A DNA stretch of 64,000 bases from positions 1-64,000 of the forward strand of contig CACPJC010000001.1 of NCBI GenBank assembly GCA_902634185.1. The letters are read 5' to 3'. The notes below the pieces were generated by a model. It was not told the origin of the DNA and ran no database searches. It worked only from the letters and a program-made list of their open reading frames with translations. The position numbers and the translations under genes were made by a program. Positions 45,607-51,580 of the stretch are shown here, piece by piece (positions within the stretch are counted from its first letter, which is position 1; the number at the start of each line of letters is the position of its first letter). Source of the DNA: an uncultured Candidatus Actinomarina sp. (GTDB lineage: Bacteria > Actinomycetota > Acidimicrobiia > Actinomarinales > Actinomarinaceae).

Positions 45607-45685
45607 TGGGGTGACCGACGGGATTCGAACCCGCGACCTCCTGGACCACAACCAGGCGCTCTAACCAAACTGAGCTACGATCACC
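45607..45685 (-). tRNA. tRNA-His (GTG), G-1 and CCA encoded
   Basis: GGTGATCG...TTGTGGT loop...CGGTCACC-CCA. Confidence 0.96.
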
Positions 45686-45689
45686 ACGG

Positions 45690-45763
45690 CGCTCTCGATA
45701 GGACTCGAACCTATAACCTACAGATTAGAAGTCTGTTGCTCTATCCATTTGAGCTACGAGAGC
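45690..45763 (-). tRNA. tRNA-Arg (TCT)
   Basis: GCTCTCG stem; ACAGA-CTTCTAA-TCTGT. Confidence 0.96.
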
Positions 45764-45769
45764 CTCTCG

Positions 45770-45840
45770 AGCGGGTGAAGGGAATCGAACCCTCATAGCC
45801 AGCTTGGAAGGCTGGAGCTTTGCCATTAAGCTACACCCGC
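45770..45840 (-). tRNA. tRNA-Gly (TCC)
   Basis: GCGGGTG stem; CCAGC-CTTCCAA-GCTGG. Confidence 0.96.
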
Positions 45841-45845
45841 GCTAG

Positions 45846-45920
45846 TCGGGCTGGTGAGATTCGAACTCACGACCTCCTGCTCCCAAAGCAGGCGCTCTAG
45901 CCAAGCTGAGCCACAGCCCG
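45846..45920 (-). tRNA. tRNA-Pro (TGG)
   Basis: CGGGCTG stem; CCTGC-TTTGGGA-GCAGG. Confidence 0.96.
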
Positions 45921-46015
45921 CACGTCTAATTATTGTTCCATGATAACGCTTTTATGGAAACAATAAATCAAAAAATTTATAGTTAAGTATTATGAGTTAA
46001 GTTAATCTGTAAAAA

Positions 46016-46088
46016 GGGTCGCTAGCTCAATTGGCAGAGCAACGGACTCTTAATCCGCAGGTTCGGGGTTCAAGTCCCCGGCGACCCA
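46016..46088 (+). tRNA. tRNA-Lys (CTT)
   Basis: GGGTCGC stem; CTCTTAA loop. Confidence 0.95.
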
Positions 46089-46099
46089 CGCGACATTTA

Positions 46100-46182
46100 G
46101 CGGATGTGGCGGAACTGGTAGACGCGCTAGATTTAGGATCTAGTGAGCTTTGCTCGTGGAGGTTCGAGTCCTCTCATCCGCA
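46100..46182 (+). tRNA. tRNA-Leu (TAG)
   Basis: GCGGATG stem; CTAGA-TTTAGGA-TCTAG; long variable arm. Confidence 0.96.
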
Positions 46183-46186
46183 CAAA

Positions 46187-46675
46187 TTATGAGATTGCTA
46201 CAACAAGTTCAGTTGACGTAGCAGTAGCTAGAAGCTTTCCATTCATATCACGAAGTTCACCCGTTAAAAAAATTACTTTTCTTCCTAATTTATCAATCTT
46301 CCCCCGAGCTACAATCTCACCGGTGTCGGCACTTATCTGGCTTAAATAATTTACTTTTATATCAGTTGTTAATGCAATAAAACCCTTATCTAAATTACAT
46401 TGGGCAGAAATACTATTGCAAGAATCCAGAAGAGTAGCTGCTAATCCCCCATGAACACTACCAATTGGGTTGTAATGAAACTCTTCGGGTACGCAGTAAA
46501 ATGATGCCTGCCCTTTTTCATCGATTTCAATCTTGGTAAAACCCATTAATGAACCAATTCCAAAAGAATCTGGTTTTAATTCAGTGAATAATTTTCGCCG
46601 ATCTTCTTTATCTAAATTAAGCAGTTTTTCTGCGATATCTAATGGTGGATCCCAGGAGTGTGTTCTCTCATTCAT
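46187..46675 (-). CDS. PaaI family hotdog thioesterase
   Basis: NPIGSVHGGLAATLLD. Confidence 0.92.
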   Translation of the reverse strand: MNERTHSWDPPLDIAEKLLNLDKEDRRKLFTELKPDSFGIGSLMGFTKIEIDEKGQASFYCVPEEFHYNPIGSVHGGLAATLLDSCNSISAQCNLDKGFIALTTDIKVNYLSQISADTGEIVARGKIDKLGRKVIFLTGELRDMNGKLLATATSTELVVAIS

Positions 46676-48614
46676 CGCTTGACTCAGATGATCTTGTTTG
46701 TAACTCAGAAACTATATCAGCATTTGCCAATGTGGTTACATCTCCTAATTTTCTTTCTTCAGAAATATCTTTCAACAATCTTCTCATAATTTTTCCACTT
46801 CTTGTTTTTGGAAGATCGTTTGTAATAACAATACTTTTAGGTTTAGCAATCGGACCAATTTTATCGCTCACATGTTGTCTTAGGGTGGATATAAGATCTT
46901 CATTCCCCTCAAAACCACCAATTAATGTTACGAATGCAGCAATAGCTTCACCAGATATCTCATCAGCTCTACCTATCACGGCTGCCTCAGCAACAGATTC
47001 ATGTGCAACAAGTGCGCTTTCTACTTCAGCGGTTGAAATTCTATGACCGGATATATTCATAACATCATCAACTCTTCCGAGAAGCCAAAAATATCCATCA
47101 TTATCATATTTTGCTCCATCTCCTGCAAAATACATACCATCATATTTTGACCAATAGGTGTCAATATATCTCTTCTCATCTCCAAACACTGTTCTAAGCA
47201 TTGATGGCCAAGGTGTTTTGATTGCTAAATATCCCCCTTCACCTTTTGAGACCTCATTTCCATTTTCATCAACAACAACTGCATCTATGCCTGGCATTGG
47301 ACCACATGCTGACCCTGGTTTTGTACTTGTAATGCCTGGCAGAGGTGTAATCATTATTGAACCAGTCTCCGTCTGCCACCATGTATCTACAATTGCACAT
47401 GATTCATTACCTATGTTTTCGTGGTACCACATCCAGGCTTCTGGATTAATTGGCTCCCCAACAGTACCTAACAATCTAAGTGAAGTTAAGTCATGTGCTT
47501 GGGGATGTTCAACTCCCCACTTCATGAAAGCTCTAATTGCAGTAGGGGCAGTGTAAAAAATATTTACTTTATATTTTTCAACTATGCTCCAAAGTCTTTT
47601 CTCATCTGGTGCGTTTGGTGCACCCTCATACATAACGCTTGTTGTTTTGTTTGCTAAAGGTCCATACACAATATAACTATGACCTGTTACCCAACCACAG
47701 TCTGCAGCACACCAATAGATATCATCTTCCTTTACGTCAAATACTGCGGAATGTGTTGTAGTTACACCAGTAAGATATCCAGCCTGTGTGTGGACGATTC
47801 CTTTTGGCTTAGCTGTTGTACCTGACGTGTAGAGGATATATAACATGTCCTCTGCATTCATTACTTCTGGTTCACAATCAGCTTCCTGCTTATCTACAAG
47901 TTCGCTATACCAATAATCTCTACCATCAACCATGGTTACTTCATTCTCAGTTCGCTTTACAACTATTACGCTCTCTATGTGATCGGTAAGCTTTAGGGAG
48001 TCATCCACATTTTGTTTTAAAGGAACTATATCTCCCCTTCTCCAAGCACCATCTGCTGTAATTACAACTTTTGCTTCAGCATCATTGATTCTGTCAGCGA
48101 GAGCTTCTGCGGAAAAACCTCCGAATACCACAGAATGGACGGCACCTATTCTTGCGCAGGCGAGCATAGAGATCACAATTTCAGGCGTCATACCAAGGTA
48201 AATTGCGATTCTATCACCTTTCTTAACACCAAGCTCTTTAAGGCCGTTTGAAAGCTTACAGACCCTCTCATAAAGATCTTGATATGTTATTTCTTGAGAG
48301 TCTCCTGGTTCTCCCTCCCAGTAAAAAGCAATTCTGTCTGCATCAGTTTCTAAATGACGGTCAAGACAATTGTAAGAAAGGTTGAGTTCTCCATCCTTAA
48401 ACCACTTATAGAAAGGTGCATCTGAGTCGTCCAAAATCTCTTTGGGTTCTTTATACCAGGTGATTCTCTCTAAAGCTTGTTTCTGCCAGTAAGCAAGTCT
48501 GTCTTCATTGGCTAGGTCAAACCATTCTTGTGTAGCGTTTGCATTCTCTACAATGCTCGTTGGAGGGTCAAAAGTTCTATCTTCTCCAAGTAAATTTTCA
48601 ATTTTTTCAGACAT
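46668..48614 (-). CDS. acs: Acetyl-CoA synthetase
   Basis: YTSGTTAKPKG, DTWWQTETG, PKTRSGKIMRR. Confidence 0.97.
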   Translation of the reverse strand: MSEKIENLLGEDRTFDPPTSIVENANATQEWFDLANEDRLAYWQKQALERITWYKEPKEILDDSDAPFYKWFKDGELNLSYNCLDRHLETDADRIAFYWEGEPGDSQEITYQDLYERVCKLSNGLKELGVKKGDRIAIYLGMTPEIVISMLACARIGAVHSVVFGGFSAEALADRINDAEAKVVITADGAWRRGDIVPLKQNVDDSLKLTDHIESVIVVKRTENEVTMVDGRDYWYSELVDKQEADCEPEVMNAEDMLYILYTSGTTAKPKGIVHTQAGYLTGVTTTHSAVFDVKEDDIYWCAADCGWVTGHSYIVYGPLANKTTSVMYEGAPNAPDEKRLWSIVEKYKVNIFYTAPTAIRAFMKWGVEHPQAHDLTSLRLLGTVGEPINPEAWMWYHENIGNESCAIVDTWWQTETGSIMITPLPGITSTKPGSACGPMPGIDAVVVDENGNEVSKGEGGYLAIKTPWPSMLRTVFGDEKRYIDTYWSKYDGMYFAGDGAKYDNDGYFWLLGRVDDVMNISGHRISTAEVESALVAHESVAEAAVIGRADEISGEAIAAFVTLIGGFEGNEDLISTLRQHVSDKIGPIAKPKSIVITNDLPKTRSGKIMRRLLKDISEERKLGDVTTLANADIVSELQTRSSESSDE

Positions 48615-48645
48615 TTTTTAATTACCTAACGTAATTATAAAAATT

Positions 48646-50208
48646 TTATGATGAACTTTCCATAAAATAATAATTAAAGCCATCACATAAAGCATTCCAA
48701 GATGCATTAATTATATTTTCGTGAACACCAATAGTGCTCCAATTTATCTCCCCATCTGTAAATTCAACAAGGACTCTTGTTCTTGCCTCAGTTCCATCTG
48801 AAGAGTCAATGATTCTCACTTTATAGTCAGTTAATTTAATCTTGTCTACATCCGGATAGTTCTTATTCAAGGCAGATTTCAAAGCTTTATTTAAAGCATC
48901 GACAGGACCAACTCCCTCTCCTGTTGTTACGAATCTTTCTTCACCTACAGATATTTTACAAACAGCTTCTGAAACAACATTTTCAGAGTTTCTTCTTTCC
49001 GAATACACTCTGAAGCTTTCAAAATCAAAAAAAGATGGCTCTTCTCCTTTGATCTTTTTCATTAATAAATATAGAGAACCATCAGCAGCCTCAAACTGAA
49101 ACCCTTGATATTCAAGATCTTGTACTTGCTCAATAAGATTTTTTGCATCATCATTTGTAAGTTCTATTCCAAATTCTTTTGCTTTAGTAATTACACTTGC
49201 TCTTCCAGCTAACTCAGAAACAGTAGTTCTGGTGTAATTTCCTACTTGACTTGCGTTTATGTGCTCATAGAGAGTATTGTCTTTTGACATACCAGAAGCA
49301 TGAAGTCCTGCCTTATGTGTGAAGGCAGATGAACCAACATAAGGATGTCTTGAGTCAATAGCGATATTTACTAATTCCGCAATGTGATTTGCTATAGGAG
49401 TCAGTTTTTCAAGTGACTCTTCAGGCACTGTCTCAAAGTCCATTTTTAAAGAGAGGTTAGGAATAAGAGTACAAAGATCTGCATTACCAGTACGCTCGCC
49501 ATAACCATTCATAGTCCCTTGAACATGTTCAACCCCAAGGTTCACTGCAGCTAGAGAGTTTGTAACTGCACAACCATTGTCATTTTGAAAGTGAACGCCA
49601 AATGATTGATTGGGGTACTCTTCCACAATTGGAGTTAAAAGATCGGTGACCTCATGAGGAAGTGTTCCTCCGTTGGTGTCACAAAAAATAAAACAATCAA
49701 CGCCTTCTTGTATTACTGCATCTAAAATTTTCAAAGTAGTCTCCGAATCCTCTTTCAAACCATCAAAGAAATGTTCTGCATCAAAAAATACTTTTCGTCC
49801 ATTATCTTTTAGATATTTAACGGTATCAGTAGCCATTAAAATCGCACTGTCTACATCAGTCTCTAGAGCCTTTGTAATGTGAAGATTTGATGATTTACCT
49901 ACGATGCAGACGTACTCTGTTTCAGAATCAATAAGTGCCTGTACTTGTGGATCGTCTTCAACTTTTACATTTAATTTTCTTGTAGAACCAAAACTAACTA
50001 ATTTTGCATTCTCTAGCTTTAAATCTTTTTTTGCTTTGTCAAAAAACTCTTTTTCCTTAGGTGATGCTCCAGGCCATCCACCTTCAATATAATCAACACC
50101 CAACTCGTCAATTAACTTAGCAATAGCTAATTTATCCTTTACTGATGGGGAGATTCCCTCCTGTTGAAACCCATCTCTAAGTGTCGTATCAAATATGTCT
50201 ATCTTCAT
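48646..50208 (-). CDS. cimA: Citramalate synthase (CimA/LeuA-like)
   Basis: DTTLRDG, EGGWPG, FDAEHFFDG, CDTNGG, GYGERTGNA, HKAGLH, FEAADGS; start MKIDIF. Confidence 0.92.
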   Translation of the reverse strand: MKIDIFDTTLRDGFQQEGISPSVKDKLAIAKLIDELGVDYIEGGWPGASPKEKEFFDKAKKDLKLENAKLVSFGSTRKLNVKVEDDPQVQALIDSETEYVCIVGKSSNLHITKALETDVDSAILMATDTVKYLKDNGRKVFFDAEHFFDGLKEDSETTLKILDAVIQEGVDCFIFCDTNGGTLPHEVTDLLTPIVEEYPNQSFGVHFQNDNGCAVTNSLAAVNLGVEHVQGTMNGYGERTGNADLCTLIPNLSLKMDFETVPEESLEKLTPIANHIAELVNIAIDSRHPYVGSSAFTHKAGLHASGMSKDNTLYEHINASQVGNYTRTTVSELAGRASVITKAKEFGIELTNDDAKNLIEQVQDLEYQGFQFEAADGSLYLLMKKIKGEEPSFFDFESFRVYSERRNSENVVSEAVCKISVGEERFVTTGEGVGPVDALNKALKSALNKNYPDVDKIKLTDYKVRIIDSSDGTEARTRVLVEFTDGEINWSTIGVHENIINASWNALCDGFNYYFMESSS

Positions 50209-50220
50209 TCGTCTTCTTCC

Positions 50221-50247
50221 AAAAAAAAACCCCTGCAACGCAAGGGT
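50221..50247 (-). terminator. Intrinsic terminator (attenuator) in cimA leader
   Basis: ACCCTTGC-GTT-GCAGGGGT stem-loop followed by a T run (9 T), 12 nt upstream of cimA ATG. Confidence 0.85.
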
Positions 50248-50269
50248 AACAACGATAAGTTCGTTGTTC

Positions 50270-50296
50270 TTAAATAATAATTATGAAATTAATCAT
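50270..50296 (-). CDS. Putative Ile-rich leader peptide MINFIIII
   Basis: ATG ATT AAT TTC ATA ATT ATT ATT TAA; upstream of a terminator and of an Ile-pathway gene. Confidence 0.75.
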   Translation of the reverse strand: MINFIIII

Positions 50297-50302
50297 GAAT
50301 TC

Positions 50303-50330
50303 ATAATAGTTTCGATAATTTGCTTGTCTA
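50303..50330 (-). promoter_or_regulatory. Putative sigma70-type promoter for leaderless leader-peptide transcript
   Basis: TAGACA-N16-TATTAT-N6-ATG. Confidence 0.55.
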
Positions 50331-50342
50331 CAAAAAATATAT

Positions 50343-50915
50343 TTATTCTTTAAATGTCTCACTCAATAGCGTGAACATTTTCTCTGTTGCAATTTTCCTG
50401 TGACTGATCTTTGTCTTCTCCTCAAAACTTAGCTCAGCAAGAGTTTTACCATCTACTTCAAAAACTGGATCATAGCCAAATCCATTATCTCCTCTTGGTA
50501 ATGTCGTAATGGTACCTGGTAGAATTCCCTCAGTATCTAGACGATTGTTCCCATCAAAAAAATACAACACTGTTTGAAAAAAGGCATTTCTATTGTCTTC
50601 ATTTTCCAAATTATTAAGCAGTTTTTGAATATTGTCTTCGGCAGTTGCAGTTTCGCCTGCATATCTTGCTGTTTTTACTCCAGGCTCATTATTTAGAGCC
50701 TCTACAAATAATCCTGAGTCATCTGAGATAACAGGGACATTATGTTTTTCAAAAATCTCTTCTGATTTTTTCTGAGCATTACCAATGATCGTATCTCTAT
50801 CCTCGACAACATCTTCCAAACTATCATCGAAAATAATTTCAAAATCTGAATCTGAAAAGATTTCTTTGATTTCTTGGAATTTGTTTTTATTTTTACTGGC
50901 GAATAAAATTTTCAT
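50343..50915 (-). CDS. rdgB: dITP/XTP pyrophosphatase
   Basis: ASKNKNK, SDDSGL, PGVKTARY, GFGYDPVF, SHR. Confidence 0.96.
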   Translation of the reverse strand: MKILFASKNKNKFQEIKEIFSDSDFEIIFDDSLEDVVEDRDTIIGNAQKKSEEIFEKHNVPVISDDSGLFVEALNNEPGVKTARYAGETATAEDNIQKLLNNLENEDNRNAFFQTVLYFFDGNNRLDTEGILPGTITTLPRGDNGFGYDPVFEVDGKTLAELSFEEKTKISHRKIATEKMFTLLSETFKE

Positions 50916-51580
50916 ACATTTTTCTGTACGTCGAAAATTTTATTTACCTCATCTTTAGTCATCTCAAAAAGCTTGTCTAAGTCTTCCTTTGAGAATGGTT
51001 TCTGTTCAGCAGTTCCTTGAATTTCTAGAATTTCGAAATTGTCATTAAGAACCAAGTTTAAATCTACTTCAGCACTTGAATCTTTTTCATAATCCAGATC
51101 TGCGATGAACTCTCCATCGACAATCCCTACTGACAAAGCTGCAATCTGGTTCGTTAGTGGATTCTGGACTAATTTCTTTTGTTCAACGAGATTATTGAAT
51201 GTTTCATTAAGAGCGATCCAAGCACCATTAATTGAGGCAGTTCTTGTACCTCCATCAGCATCTAACACATCACAATCAACGGTTACTAAATAACCATTGA
51301 GTATTGCTAGGTCGCAAACTGATCTGAGTGACCTACCAATTAATCTTGAGATTTCTTTTGATCTTCCGCCTTCAAATGATTTCCTTGATATTCTCTGATC
51401 TGAAGATCCAGGCAACATATTGTATTCTGCTGTTAACCAACCCCTATCTGAGTTTTCAAGCCATCTTGGGACCTTATCCGCAATGGAAACTGTAATCAAA
51501 ACTTTTGTGTTACCAGACTCATAGAGCACTGAAGTGTTTTCTGAATTAATAAAATCTTTGGTTACTTTTATATCTCGCAT
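50912..51580 (-). CDS. rph: Ribonuclease PH
   Basis: GWLTAEYNMLP, EISRLIGRSLR, DGGTRTASING. Confidence 0.97.
   Translation of the reverse strand: MRDIKVTKDFINSENTSVLYESGNTKVLITVSIADKVPRWLENSDRGWLTAEYNMLPGSSDQRISRKSFEGGRSKEISRLIGRSLRSVCDLAILNGYLVTVDCDVLDADGGTRTASINGAWIALNETFNNLVEQKKLVQNPLTNQIAALSVGIVDGEFIADLDYEKDSSAEVDLNLVLNDNFEILEIQGTAEQKPFSKEDLDKLFEMTKDEVNKIFDVQKNV

Follow-up and report, generated by a model that had tools for sequence, protein, structure and literature searches.

What lies upstream of cimA, the gene for (R)-citramalate synthase, on the minus strand of a 64,000-nt stretch of DNA from an uncultured Candidatus Actinomarina sp. (contig CACPJC010000001.1, positions 1 to 64,000; called here the window), and does it regulate cimA? 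An initial annotation had described a short open reading frame (sORF) with a run of Ile codons followed by two hairpins, and had suggested that together they form an Ile-sensing attenuator. We conclude that these elements very likely constitute an Ile-responsive, ribosome-mediated leader-peptide transcription attenuator of cimA, which is probably leaderless and probably controls the next gene, acs, as well. This reading of the sequence was adopted because of the anatomy of the leader, its specificity for Ile, its conservation, and the logic of the pathway. The features involved are as follows, with positions given in the window.

50325-50330, minus strand: −35-like hexamer TAGACA, found from the sequence and a consensus scan, with a predicted promoter function; followed by a 16-nt spacer
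50303-50308, minus strand: −10-like hexamer TATTAT, found in the same way; 6 nt (GAATTC) before the ATG
50270-50296, minus strand: leader sORF, ATG ATT AAT TTC ATA ATT ATT ATT TAA, encoding MINFIIII and a stop; ATG at 50294-50296
50273-50284, minus strand: run of four Ile codons, ATA ATT ATT ATT, the proposed sensing codons
50248-50268, minus strand: hairpin A, formed by AACAACGA (50261-50268), the loop ACTTA, and TCGTTGTT (50248-50255); 8 perfect pairs
50230-50246, minus strand: terminator T, CCCTTGC-GTT-GCAGGGG; 8 pairs including an outer A-U pair (50247, 50229)
50221-50229, minus strand: nine-U tract of T, found from the sequence and a terminator scan
50209-50220, minus strand: spacer GGAAGAAGACGA of 12 bases, with a purine-rich, Shine-Dalgarno-like stretch before cimA
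48646-50208, minus strand: cimA, (R)-citramalate synthase (TIGR00977), the proposed regulated gene; ATG at 50206-50208
46668-48614, minus strand: acs, acetate-CoA ligase (NF001208, 1019 bits); starts 31 nt past cimA

This layout agrees base for base, and on the same strand, with that of the initial annotation (TAGACA-N16-TATTAT-N6-ATG, MINFIIII, a hairpin, a terminator, and then cimA). Five of the eight codons of MINFIIII specify Ile; four of these are consecutive and one is ATA. A single G (50269) separates the sORF stop codon from hairpin A, the first paired base of which is 4 nt past the last Ile codon. Between A and the CCCTTGC of T there is a single A (50247), which belongs to the outer pair of T, and T thus adjoins A without a linker. 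The predicted RNA is 76 nt long, close to the 75 nt or so suggested earlier, and folds into exactly A plus T with an energy of −21.5 kcal/mol (z = −4.96); none of 200 shuffled sequences folded equally well.

How much of this arrangement could be expected by chance? Four Ile codons followed by TAA or TAG occurred once in the 64-kb window, with 0.30 expected, and 23 of 100 shuffled windows contained at least one such run. The Ile run alone was therefore not significant, as the initial annotation had cautioned for ATT runs in AT-rich DNA. The promoter-like site was the best of 18 listed in 10 kb, matching 10 of 12 positions; because the scan yielded fewer sites in total (18) than did shuffled sequences (mean of 29.3), this match is no evidence by itself. 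Terminator T was the top terminator-like site, with 4 such sites found and 5.2 expected. A strict scan of the whole 0.97-Mb assembly, in which an ATG-started sORF had to contain a run of at least three identical residues and end no more than 45 nt before a stem plus T6 terminator, returned two sORF-terminator pairs, one of which was the MINFIIII leader. Because neither the Ile run nor the consensus scans were above chance when taken alone, the case rests on comparison with relatives.

A CimA search of 58 related genomes provided 26 same-genus loci with sufficient flanking sequence and 22 GC-rich class relatives. A wider set of 80 named cimA loci came from a scan of genome contigs with one genome per species. 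The leaders collected numbered 54, and 49 were non-identical; L049, a duplicate of a genus sequence, and L081, with an unclear terminator, were omitted. L001 designates the leader of the window and the other L numbers related loci. The complete module of Ile sORF, A, T, and nine U's was present in all 26 same-genus loci. The genus peptides were MINFIIII, MMNIIIII, MNIIIII, MKKIIIII, MMNIIIIN, MKKIIIIV, MQKIIIIV, and MINIKIIF, and the nine T's were invariant across the 21 distinct sequences found among the 26 loci. In the relatives the spacer from T to cimA was variable in length (5-12 nt), which would leave no room for a separate promoter between them.

Among the GC-rich class relatives, seven of 22 had the module directly before cimA, with the sORFs MFDTTPTIIIN, MPDCSGRRTGIIIL, MSASIIIIA, ...STIIIID, ...AIIIIC, ...PLIISD, and ...PFIIIP. 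In the other 15, cimA lies behind another open reading frame (ORF), which is mostly ilvE-like, and a strict scan for III-containing sORFs in the 3.5 kb upstream of cimA found none (0 of 15). When 11 of these 15 were scanned more loosely, at the beginning of the leuB-like ORF, the module was seen in three (...RRVIIIP, ...SVVIIP, and MKSSVIIVI); in those three it precedes a leuB-like/ilvE-like/cimA operon.

For loci beyond the class, an sORF was counted if it had an Ile run in its last nine residues and lay no more than 300 nt from cimA. Such sORFs were present at 20 of the 80 wider loci, and seven of these carriers come from the 17 loci with the label Acidimicrobiia. The rest are labelled Amycolatopsis (two), Lentzea, Kutzneria, Actinophytocola, Pseudonocardiaceae, Nocardioidaceae, Micrococcales, and Ornithinibacter, together with an unclassified Actinomycetota metagenome-assembled genome (MAG) and three MAGs labelled Bifidobacterium breve, Acidobacteriota, and Anaerolineae. 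The closest locus in the wider set, from an uncultured Candidatus Actinomarina sp., had 90% CimA identity.

The specificity for Ile was examined by counting sORFs with a triple run near their end for all 20 amino acids alike over the 80 loci. Ile runs were found at 20 loci, Leu and Arg runs at three each, Thr runs at two, and Glu and Phe runs at one each; the other 14 residues gave none. Ile was thus the only residue with an enriched triple run in sORFs upstream of cimA. Eighteen of the 20 Ile loci also had a run of T's past the stop codon, and the mean GC content upstream of the 80 genes was 61%. In 26 GC-rich leaders the run codons were 54 ATC, 35 ATT, and no ATA; in GC-rich relatives, ATT runs cannot stem from base composition. 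The Ile run and its frame, which the initial annotation had feared might not be conserved, were retained in all 26 genus loci and in GC-rich relatives.

These comparisons bear directly on the possibility that the sORF is a chance ORF, an ATT run that senses nothing and merely stands beside the terminator of the upstream rph-rdgB operon. The shuffling results and the position of the terminator downstream of rdgB would suit such an origin. It is nevertheless extremely improbable, since the Ile run is kept as ATC and ATT at 61% GC, only Ile is enriched, 20 of 26 genus loci and the class relatives have a different upstream gene, and every one of the 26 genus loci has a promoter-like site past the upstream gene and ahead of the sORF. 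Six genus loci have rdgB directly upstream; the remaining 20 have a further ORF of about 250 codons between rdgB and the leader, and the 3′ end of this ORF overlaps TAGACA. In four class loci that were compared, neither rdgB nor acs was adjacent, and the module was still before cimA. Because the module stays with cimA when the upstream neighbor changes, the hairpins do not serve only as the terminator of the rdgB operon, a reservation that the initial annotation had raised.

Are the two hairpins conserved as structures? A terminator hairpin was predicted in 47 of the 49 non-identical leaders; the two others, L138 and L143, failed U-tract detection. The 47 leaders in which both A and T could be delimited by script form the geometry set. 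In the genus alignment of the 21 distinct sequences, 97.9% of the cells of A and T form standard pairs (97.0% for A and 98.8% for T), as compared with 34-55% when the partners were slid. One pair of A exchanges among AU, UA, and UG within the genus, whose sequences are too similar to show further covariation. Between lineages, the stem sequences are entirely different, with 31 distinct 5′ arms of A and 20 of T in the 47 leaders. A hairpin of at least 6 bp starting no more than 9 nt past the Ile run was present in 39 of the 49 leaders and in 1292 of 9800 shuffled sequences. A looser helix criterion does not discriminate: 48 of 49 leaders satisfied it, and so did 2372 of 4900 shuffled sequences.

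The placement of the hairpins was more regular than their sequence. Four bases separate the Ile run from A in 16 of the 47 leaders and five in 21; the spacing varies over 1-8 nt in the whole set, and the 4-5 nt spacing held with 0, 1, 5, or 6 codons past the run. No codons separate the run from the stop in 16 leaders, one codon does so in 24, and two in one, with A at or just past the stop. The stop codon is UAG in 36 of 47 leaders, and many GC-rich leaders pair its G within A. In leaders of the Pseudonocardiaceae type (...IIIAERAG, ...IIIDERVG, ...IIIAVRAG, and ...IIIRERVDV), the 5-6 codons after the run themselves form the 5′ arm of A. This variant layout was seen in Actinomycetes loci L060, L066, L070, L072, L086, L106, and L121, where the residues after the run are AERAG, DERVG, DGRAG, AVRAG, or RERVDV; their GC-rich codons are the 5′ arm of A, the stop codon lies inside A, and the linker between A and T is 0-2 nt. 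Over the 47 leaders this linker was 0 nt in 29, 1 nt in seven, 2 nt in one, 3 nt in two, 4 nt in six, and 5 nt in two. Counted from the first base of the codon in the P site, and with the last Ile codon in the A site of the ribosome, a spacing of 4-5 nt puts the initial pair of A at +11 or +12. Positions +11 and +12 are the start of the mRNA entrance and helicase site of the ribosome.

The leader has an ORF rich in codons for the end product and an intrinsic terminator before the gene, as a classical attenuator does. Does it also have a mutually exclusive antiterminator? Fourteen representative leaders were folded with their 5′ part masked by a ribosome at each Ile codon and at the stop codon, with and without the 3′ arm of T. 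No antiterminator overlapping T was found: T was the minimum-energy structure at every ribosome mask in all 14 leaders. Within these folding models the classical antiterminator is lacking, in agreement with the remark in the initial annotation that no strong one could be seen. The only alternative it had noted, a 5-bp CAACG:CGTTG pairing, does exist in the window; it is not conserved, because the loop of T is GTT, TTT, ATG, ATT, TGC, or CTT in relatives.

A classical attenuator might still operate through a weak or cryptic antiterminator that acts kinetically, either by an extension of A or by pairing of the spacer or an arm of A with T. When the 3′ arm of T was left out, so that the RNA was as it would be before that arm is made, A gained 2-5 additional pairs by reaching into the 5′ arm of T (CCCUU) in L009, L014, L021, L023, and L024, and small 4-bp alternatives were found in L027 and L041. 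Against this stands the lack of any predicted extension of A in L001, L007, L029, L035, and L045, the loss of the CAACG:CGTTG pairing where the T loop differs, and an energy gain of no more than 3 kcal/mol, as compared with −11 to −19 kcal/mol for T. Moreover, 11 of the 47 leaders have 2-5 unpaired nt between A and T, and their hairpins therefore cannot share bases. On balance we consider a classical attenuator of this kind quite unlikely.

It does have in its favor that another leader of the same genome, one for Trp, is classical. The Trp leader MKNITSWNWWSTT lies outside the window (G000 contig C2, about 120813-120904 on the plus strand; L145:214-305). It contains a 13-codon sORF with WNWW and lies 57 nt before a gene for a TrpB-like pyridoxal phosphate enzyme (NF009057, 693.7 bits). 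A −10-like hexamer stands 7 nt before its ATG and its terminator has seven U's; like the cimA leader, it is predicted to be leaderless. Its antiterminator is formed by GGUGCC right past the stop codon, which complements GGGCAC, a segment that belongs to the 5′ arm and the loop of the terminator; its Trp codons are within a long 1:2 hairpin, and the layout is that of a textbook four-segment attenuator. The WNWW leader was present in 12 of 12 genus loci examined, and the TrpB-like gene in 13 of 33 genomes, one partial hit being left out of the examined loci. Ribosome-mediated attenuation of the classical type is thus in use in the genus, whereas the cimA leader is built differently, with neither the antiterminator of the Trp leader nor sensing codons inside a 1:2 hairpin.

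If no base of T is shared with another helix, how could the position of a ribosome decide the fate of the transcript? We infer that transcription would start at or a few bases from the A of the sORF ATG, and that a 70S ribosome would translate MINFIIII while RNA polymerase makes A and T. With ample Ile-tRNA, the ribosome would clear the Ile run, reach the stop codon, and unwind the 5′ arm of A, which begins 1 nt past the stop; with A unwound, T would form, and transcription would terminate in the U9 tract to give an RNA of about 76 nt. With scarce Ile-tRNA, the ribosome would wait inside the Ile run, A, being 4-5 nt beyond it, would stay intact, and intact A would favor read-through into cimA. 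For the last step, our best guess is steric, and it is held only tentatively: A, a rigid helix joined to T by a linker of no more than 5 nt, may be unable to follow the 5′ strand of T into the RNA exit channel, such that T could not close its lowest pairs until A is melted by the ribosome. The leader as a whole would then be a two-hairpin attenuator whose "antiterminator" shares no nucleotide with T, and in which a ribosome moving past the Ile run unwinds A and thereby licenses termination. We put this complete scheme forward as a speculation rather than as the expected outcome. If true, it would represent a context-dependent mutual exclusion that is invisible to free-RNA folding and is conserved from streamlined marine Actinomarina to soil Actinomycetes.

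Several observations weigh against the attenuator or against parts of the mechanism. Because T is always the minimum-energy structure, the thermodynamics of the free RNA predicts termination in all states. An extension of A into T was not predicted for L001 or for most GC-rich leaders. If the footprint of the ribosome extends to 12 nt past the first base of the A site, a ribosome on either of the final two Ile codons of L001 already opens three to six of the pairs of A; the equation of intact A with starvation thus hinges on a helicase position of about +11. For the steric step, the 1:2 hairpin of the Trp leader is predicted to end only 3 nt before its terminator. As to conservation, 15 of the 22 class relatives lack the module directly upstream of cimA, and in 12 of them none was found within 3.5 kb; in addition, related genomes are not independent, with 21 of the 47 measured leaders coming from one genus. 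The Ile run of the window, taken alone, is within chance for AT-rich DNA, and the RNA evidence consists of assembled metatranscriptome contigs, which are blind to transcript starts, ends, and levels. The frequency of abutting hairpins at ordinary terminators is of little help here: they were found at two of 31 strict terminators in the assembly and at four of 93 shifted windows, a comparison without power, and the second of the two terminators lies within a coding region. A literature search on hairpins upstream of terminators found general papers only; according to one preprint, the efficiency of a terminator depends on the bases immediately 5′ of its stem.

The footprint calculation is also an argument for the reverse logic, in which a ribosome at the last Ile codons melts A, and A is needed for termination, either as a pause hairpin or as one half of a tandem terminator. 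A ribosome covering 12 nt past the first base of the A site and stalled at codon 7 or 8 of L001 removes three to six of the eight pairs of A, and ribosomes at the stop codon and at the last Ile codons would then differ mainly in dwell time. That A abuts T in 47 of 47 leaders would fit this scheme, as would the claim of one paper that hairpin clusters act as terminators (PMC8355165). A starved ribosome, on the other hand, would stall first at the first Ile codon, 13-16 nt before A, where A is intact under either footprint; the observed spacing of 4-5 nt is what would be expected if A is to escape the ribosome, whereas 0-2 nt would be expected if A is to be melted; and T alone is a canonical strong terminator with eight pairs plus U9. 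We therefore regard the reverse logic as unlikely and retain the order of events in which intact A accompanies Ile starvation.

Could the product of the leader be the RNA or the peptide itself, with control of cimA being secondary? Small RNAs that are derived from attenuators and act in trans are reported in PMC6614838. In the released RNA predicted for leaders of the MKK type, moreover, the Lys codons pair with the U tract. A functional short RNA or hydrophobic octapeptide is very unlikely in light of the comparison, however, because the rest of the peptide, apart from the Ile run, varies from lineage to lineage (MINF, MKK, MSAS, MTDSATTT, and others) and the stems of A and T change completely; the conserved feature is the position before cimA or its operon. 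The pairing in the MKK-type leaders (L009-L026) involves the A7-8 tract of the Lys codons and U9 and, in the predicted fold, encloses both A and T; it is absent from the MINF type.

Several other candidate features were considered and rejected. The pairing of the Lys-codon A run with the U tract was set aside as a general feature, since only MKK-type leaders have it. The +1 frame is open in the window from the Ile run through A and T into cimA (50238-50283, minus strand; 544 codons with a TTG at 50238), raising the possibility of a frameshift; several relatives close it immediately before the ATG (519-520 codons in L015 and L019-L023), and it was taken to be open by chance. GACGA ahead of the cimA start could pair with the 3′ arm of A, but, as judged by eye, only in the closest relatives of the window. 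A fixed ribosome-to-polymerase ruler from the Ile codons to the U tract was not conserved, the distance being 46 nt in L001 and about 63 nt in L029.

Is the transcript leaderless? TAGACA was invariant in all 26 genus loci, at −34 to −37 from the start codon. In 25 of the 26 loci, 6-7 nt separate the end of the −10-like hexamer from the ATG; in L008 the distance is 9 nt because the first ATG has been lost and the next is used. No Shine-Dalgarno-like motif was found in the last 16 nt before the sORF in any of the 26 loci. In the seven class relatives, a NANNNT hexamer stands 4-11 nt before the chosen start, and GGAG was present in one. Leader peptides on leaderless transcripts are known in Streptomyces (PMC8079986). 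The geometry of the cimA leader predicts that its transcript, too, is probably leaderless or nearly so.

Four metatranscriptome runs were available as assembled contigs, which are uninformative on starts, ends, and levels. Contigs of two of the four, X1 and X4, bridge rdgB, the leader, and cimA, and X2 has no cover over 50210-50317. Positions 49400-51000 of the window were also present, at 90-100% identity, in marine and seawater metatranscriptome assemblies from several studies.

Why should this gene respond to Ile? The cimA protein scored 636.7 bits on TIGR00977, for which the cut-off is 450, whereas LeuA models gave 245-275 bits (274.5 at best), below their cut-offs of 517-599. The initial annotation had called the gene cimA rather than leuA, and these scores bear it out. 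Threonine deaminase (ilvA; TIGR01127 and TIGR01124) was found in none of 33 genus genomes, which are 60-90% complete, although both families matched in 14 of 14 controls. With a true citramalate synthase present and ilvA not found in the 33 genomes, cimA is the entry to the Ile-specific branch, and the genus seems to reach 2-oxobutanoate by the citramalate route only.

The gene order on the minus strand is aconitase, pdxH, rph, rdgB, a 134-nt intergenic region, cimA, acs, and a hotdog thioesterase gene. Downstream of cimA, acs was present in 25 of the 26 genus loci, the 26th being cut by a contig end, and we take cimA and acs to be probably co-transcribed. This order pairs a user of acetyl-CoA with a maker of acetyl-CoA. 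The acs gene overlaps the thioesterase gene, and the cimA-acs-thioesterase stretch covers 46187-50208 (minus strand). Beside the thioesterase gene is a cluster of six tRNA genes (45610-46182), four on the minus strand and two on the plus strand.

The second pair returned by the strict scan of the assembly lies outside the window (G000 contig C7; L129:4640-4800, minus strand). Its sORF, MQNLNASKVVVIYT, has a −10-like TATATT 6 nt before the ATG and a stem plus T8 terminator downstream, followed by a 74-codon ORF without a family match and the genes for isocitrate lyase and malate synthase. This may represent a Val/Ile-type leader of a glyoxylate-shunt operon, or it may be due to chance. A relaxed genome-wide scan for leaders gave 66 matches among 336 terminator-like sites; these were mostly noise and included the Trp leader.

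Through the cimA leader, a specific and conserved regulatory element can be assigned to the citramalate route to isoleucine. Amino acid synthesis in this genome, which is among the smallest of free-living organisms, would be regulated by RNA devices of about 76 nt rather than by proteins. With eight codons, two abutting hairpins, very regular spacing, and no overlapping antiterminator, the leader would be a natural minimal attenuator. If the spacing rules hold, it would test the control of an intrinsic terminator by a ribosome and an upstream structure without base-pair competition, and would offer a compact Ile-responsive part for actinobacterial engineering. Full-text searches for a cimA leader peptide or attenuator, the coverage of which excluded subscription journals and supplements, found no relevant paper.

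How does this leader compare with known systems? The enterobacterial attenuators trpL, hisL, leuL, thrL, and ilvL/ivbL have a Shine-Dalgarno-led leader peptide and overlapping 1:2, 2:3, and 3:4 hairpins. The cimA leader resembles them in its peptide rich in the regulatory residue, its intrinsic terminator, and the proposed decision by ribosome position; it differs in having no 5′ untranslated region (as predicted) and no 2:3 pairing. Ile T-box leaders (RF00230) regulate cimA-like genes in some Deltaproteobacteria. In both the T-box and, as proposed, the cimA leader, the charging of tRNA-Ile controls a terminator. Unlike a T-box, the cimA leader gave no Rfam match (no family matched 50208-50330 at E up to 10 or the leaders of 20 related loci at E up to 1), and sensing would run through translation rather than direct tRNA binding.

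Other parallels come from the phylum of the host itself, Actinomycetota. For Actinobacteria, PMC8079986 and PMC1262725 describe leaderless leader peptides with hairpins and U stretches behind them; these include ilvL, leuL, and trpL of Streptomyces lividans (PMC8079986) and, for Corynebacterium, Mycobacterium, and Streptomyces, leaders of ilvB (PMC1262725). These leaders and the cimA leader are alike in having a short ORF at the 5′ end that is rich in the end-product residue, then hairpins, a U stretch, and a biosynthetic gene. The leaders in these papers precede ilvB, leuA, trpE, or tRNA-ligase genes and have mixed Ile, Val, and Leu codons, whereas the cimA leader has Ile alone; neither cimA nor citramalate occurs in the main text of either paper. 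A parallel in mechanism is the leader of ilvB1NC of Mycobacterium tuberculosis, as presented in PMC13236596: a ribosome at the stop codon of the upstream ORF masks the next hairpin and the terminator forms, whereas a stall at LVVI leaves that hairpin intact. The cimA leader is proposed to follow the same two-hairpin logic. In ilvB1NC, by that account, the anti-terminator and terminator are mutually exclusive within a 166-nt leader (PMC13236596), whereas A and T of the cimA leader share no bases and occupy about 76 nt. Leaderless leader-peptide attenuators are thus known in Actinobacteria; what is new here is cimA as the target, sensing by Ile codons only, and a two-hairpin layout without overlap.

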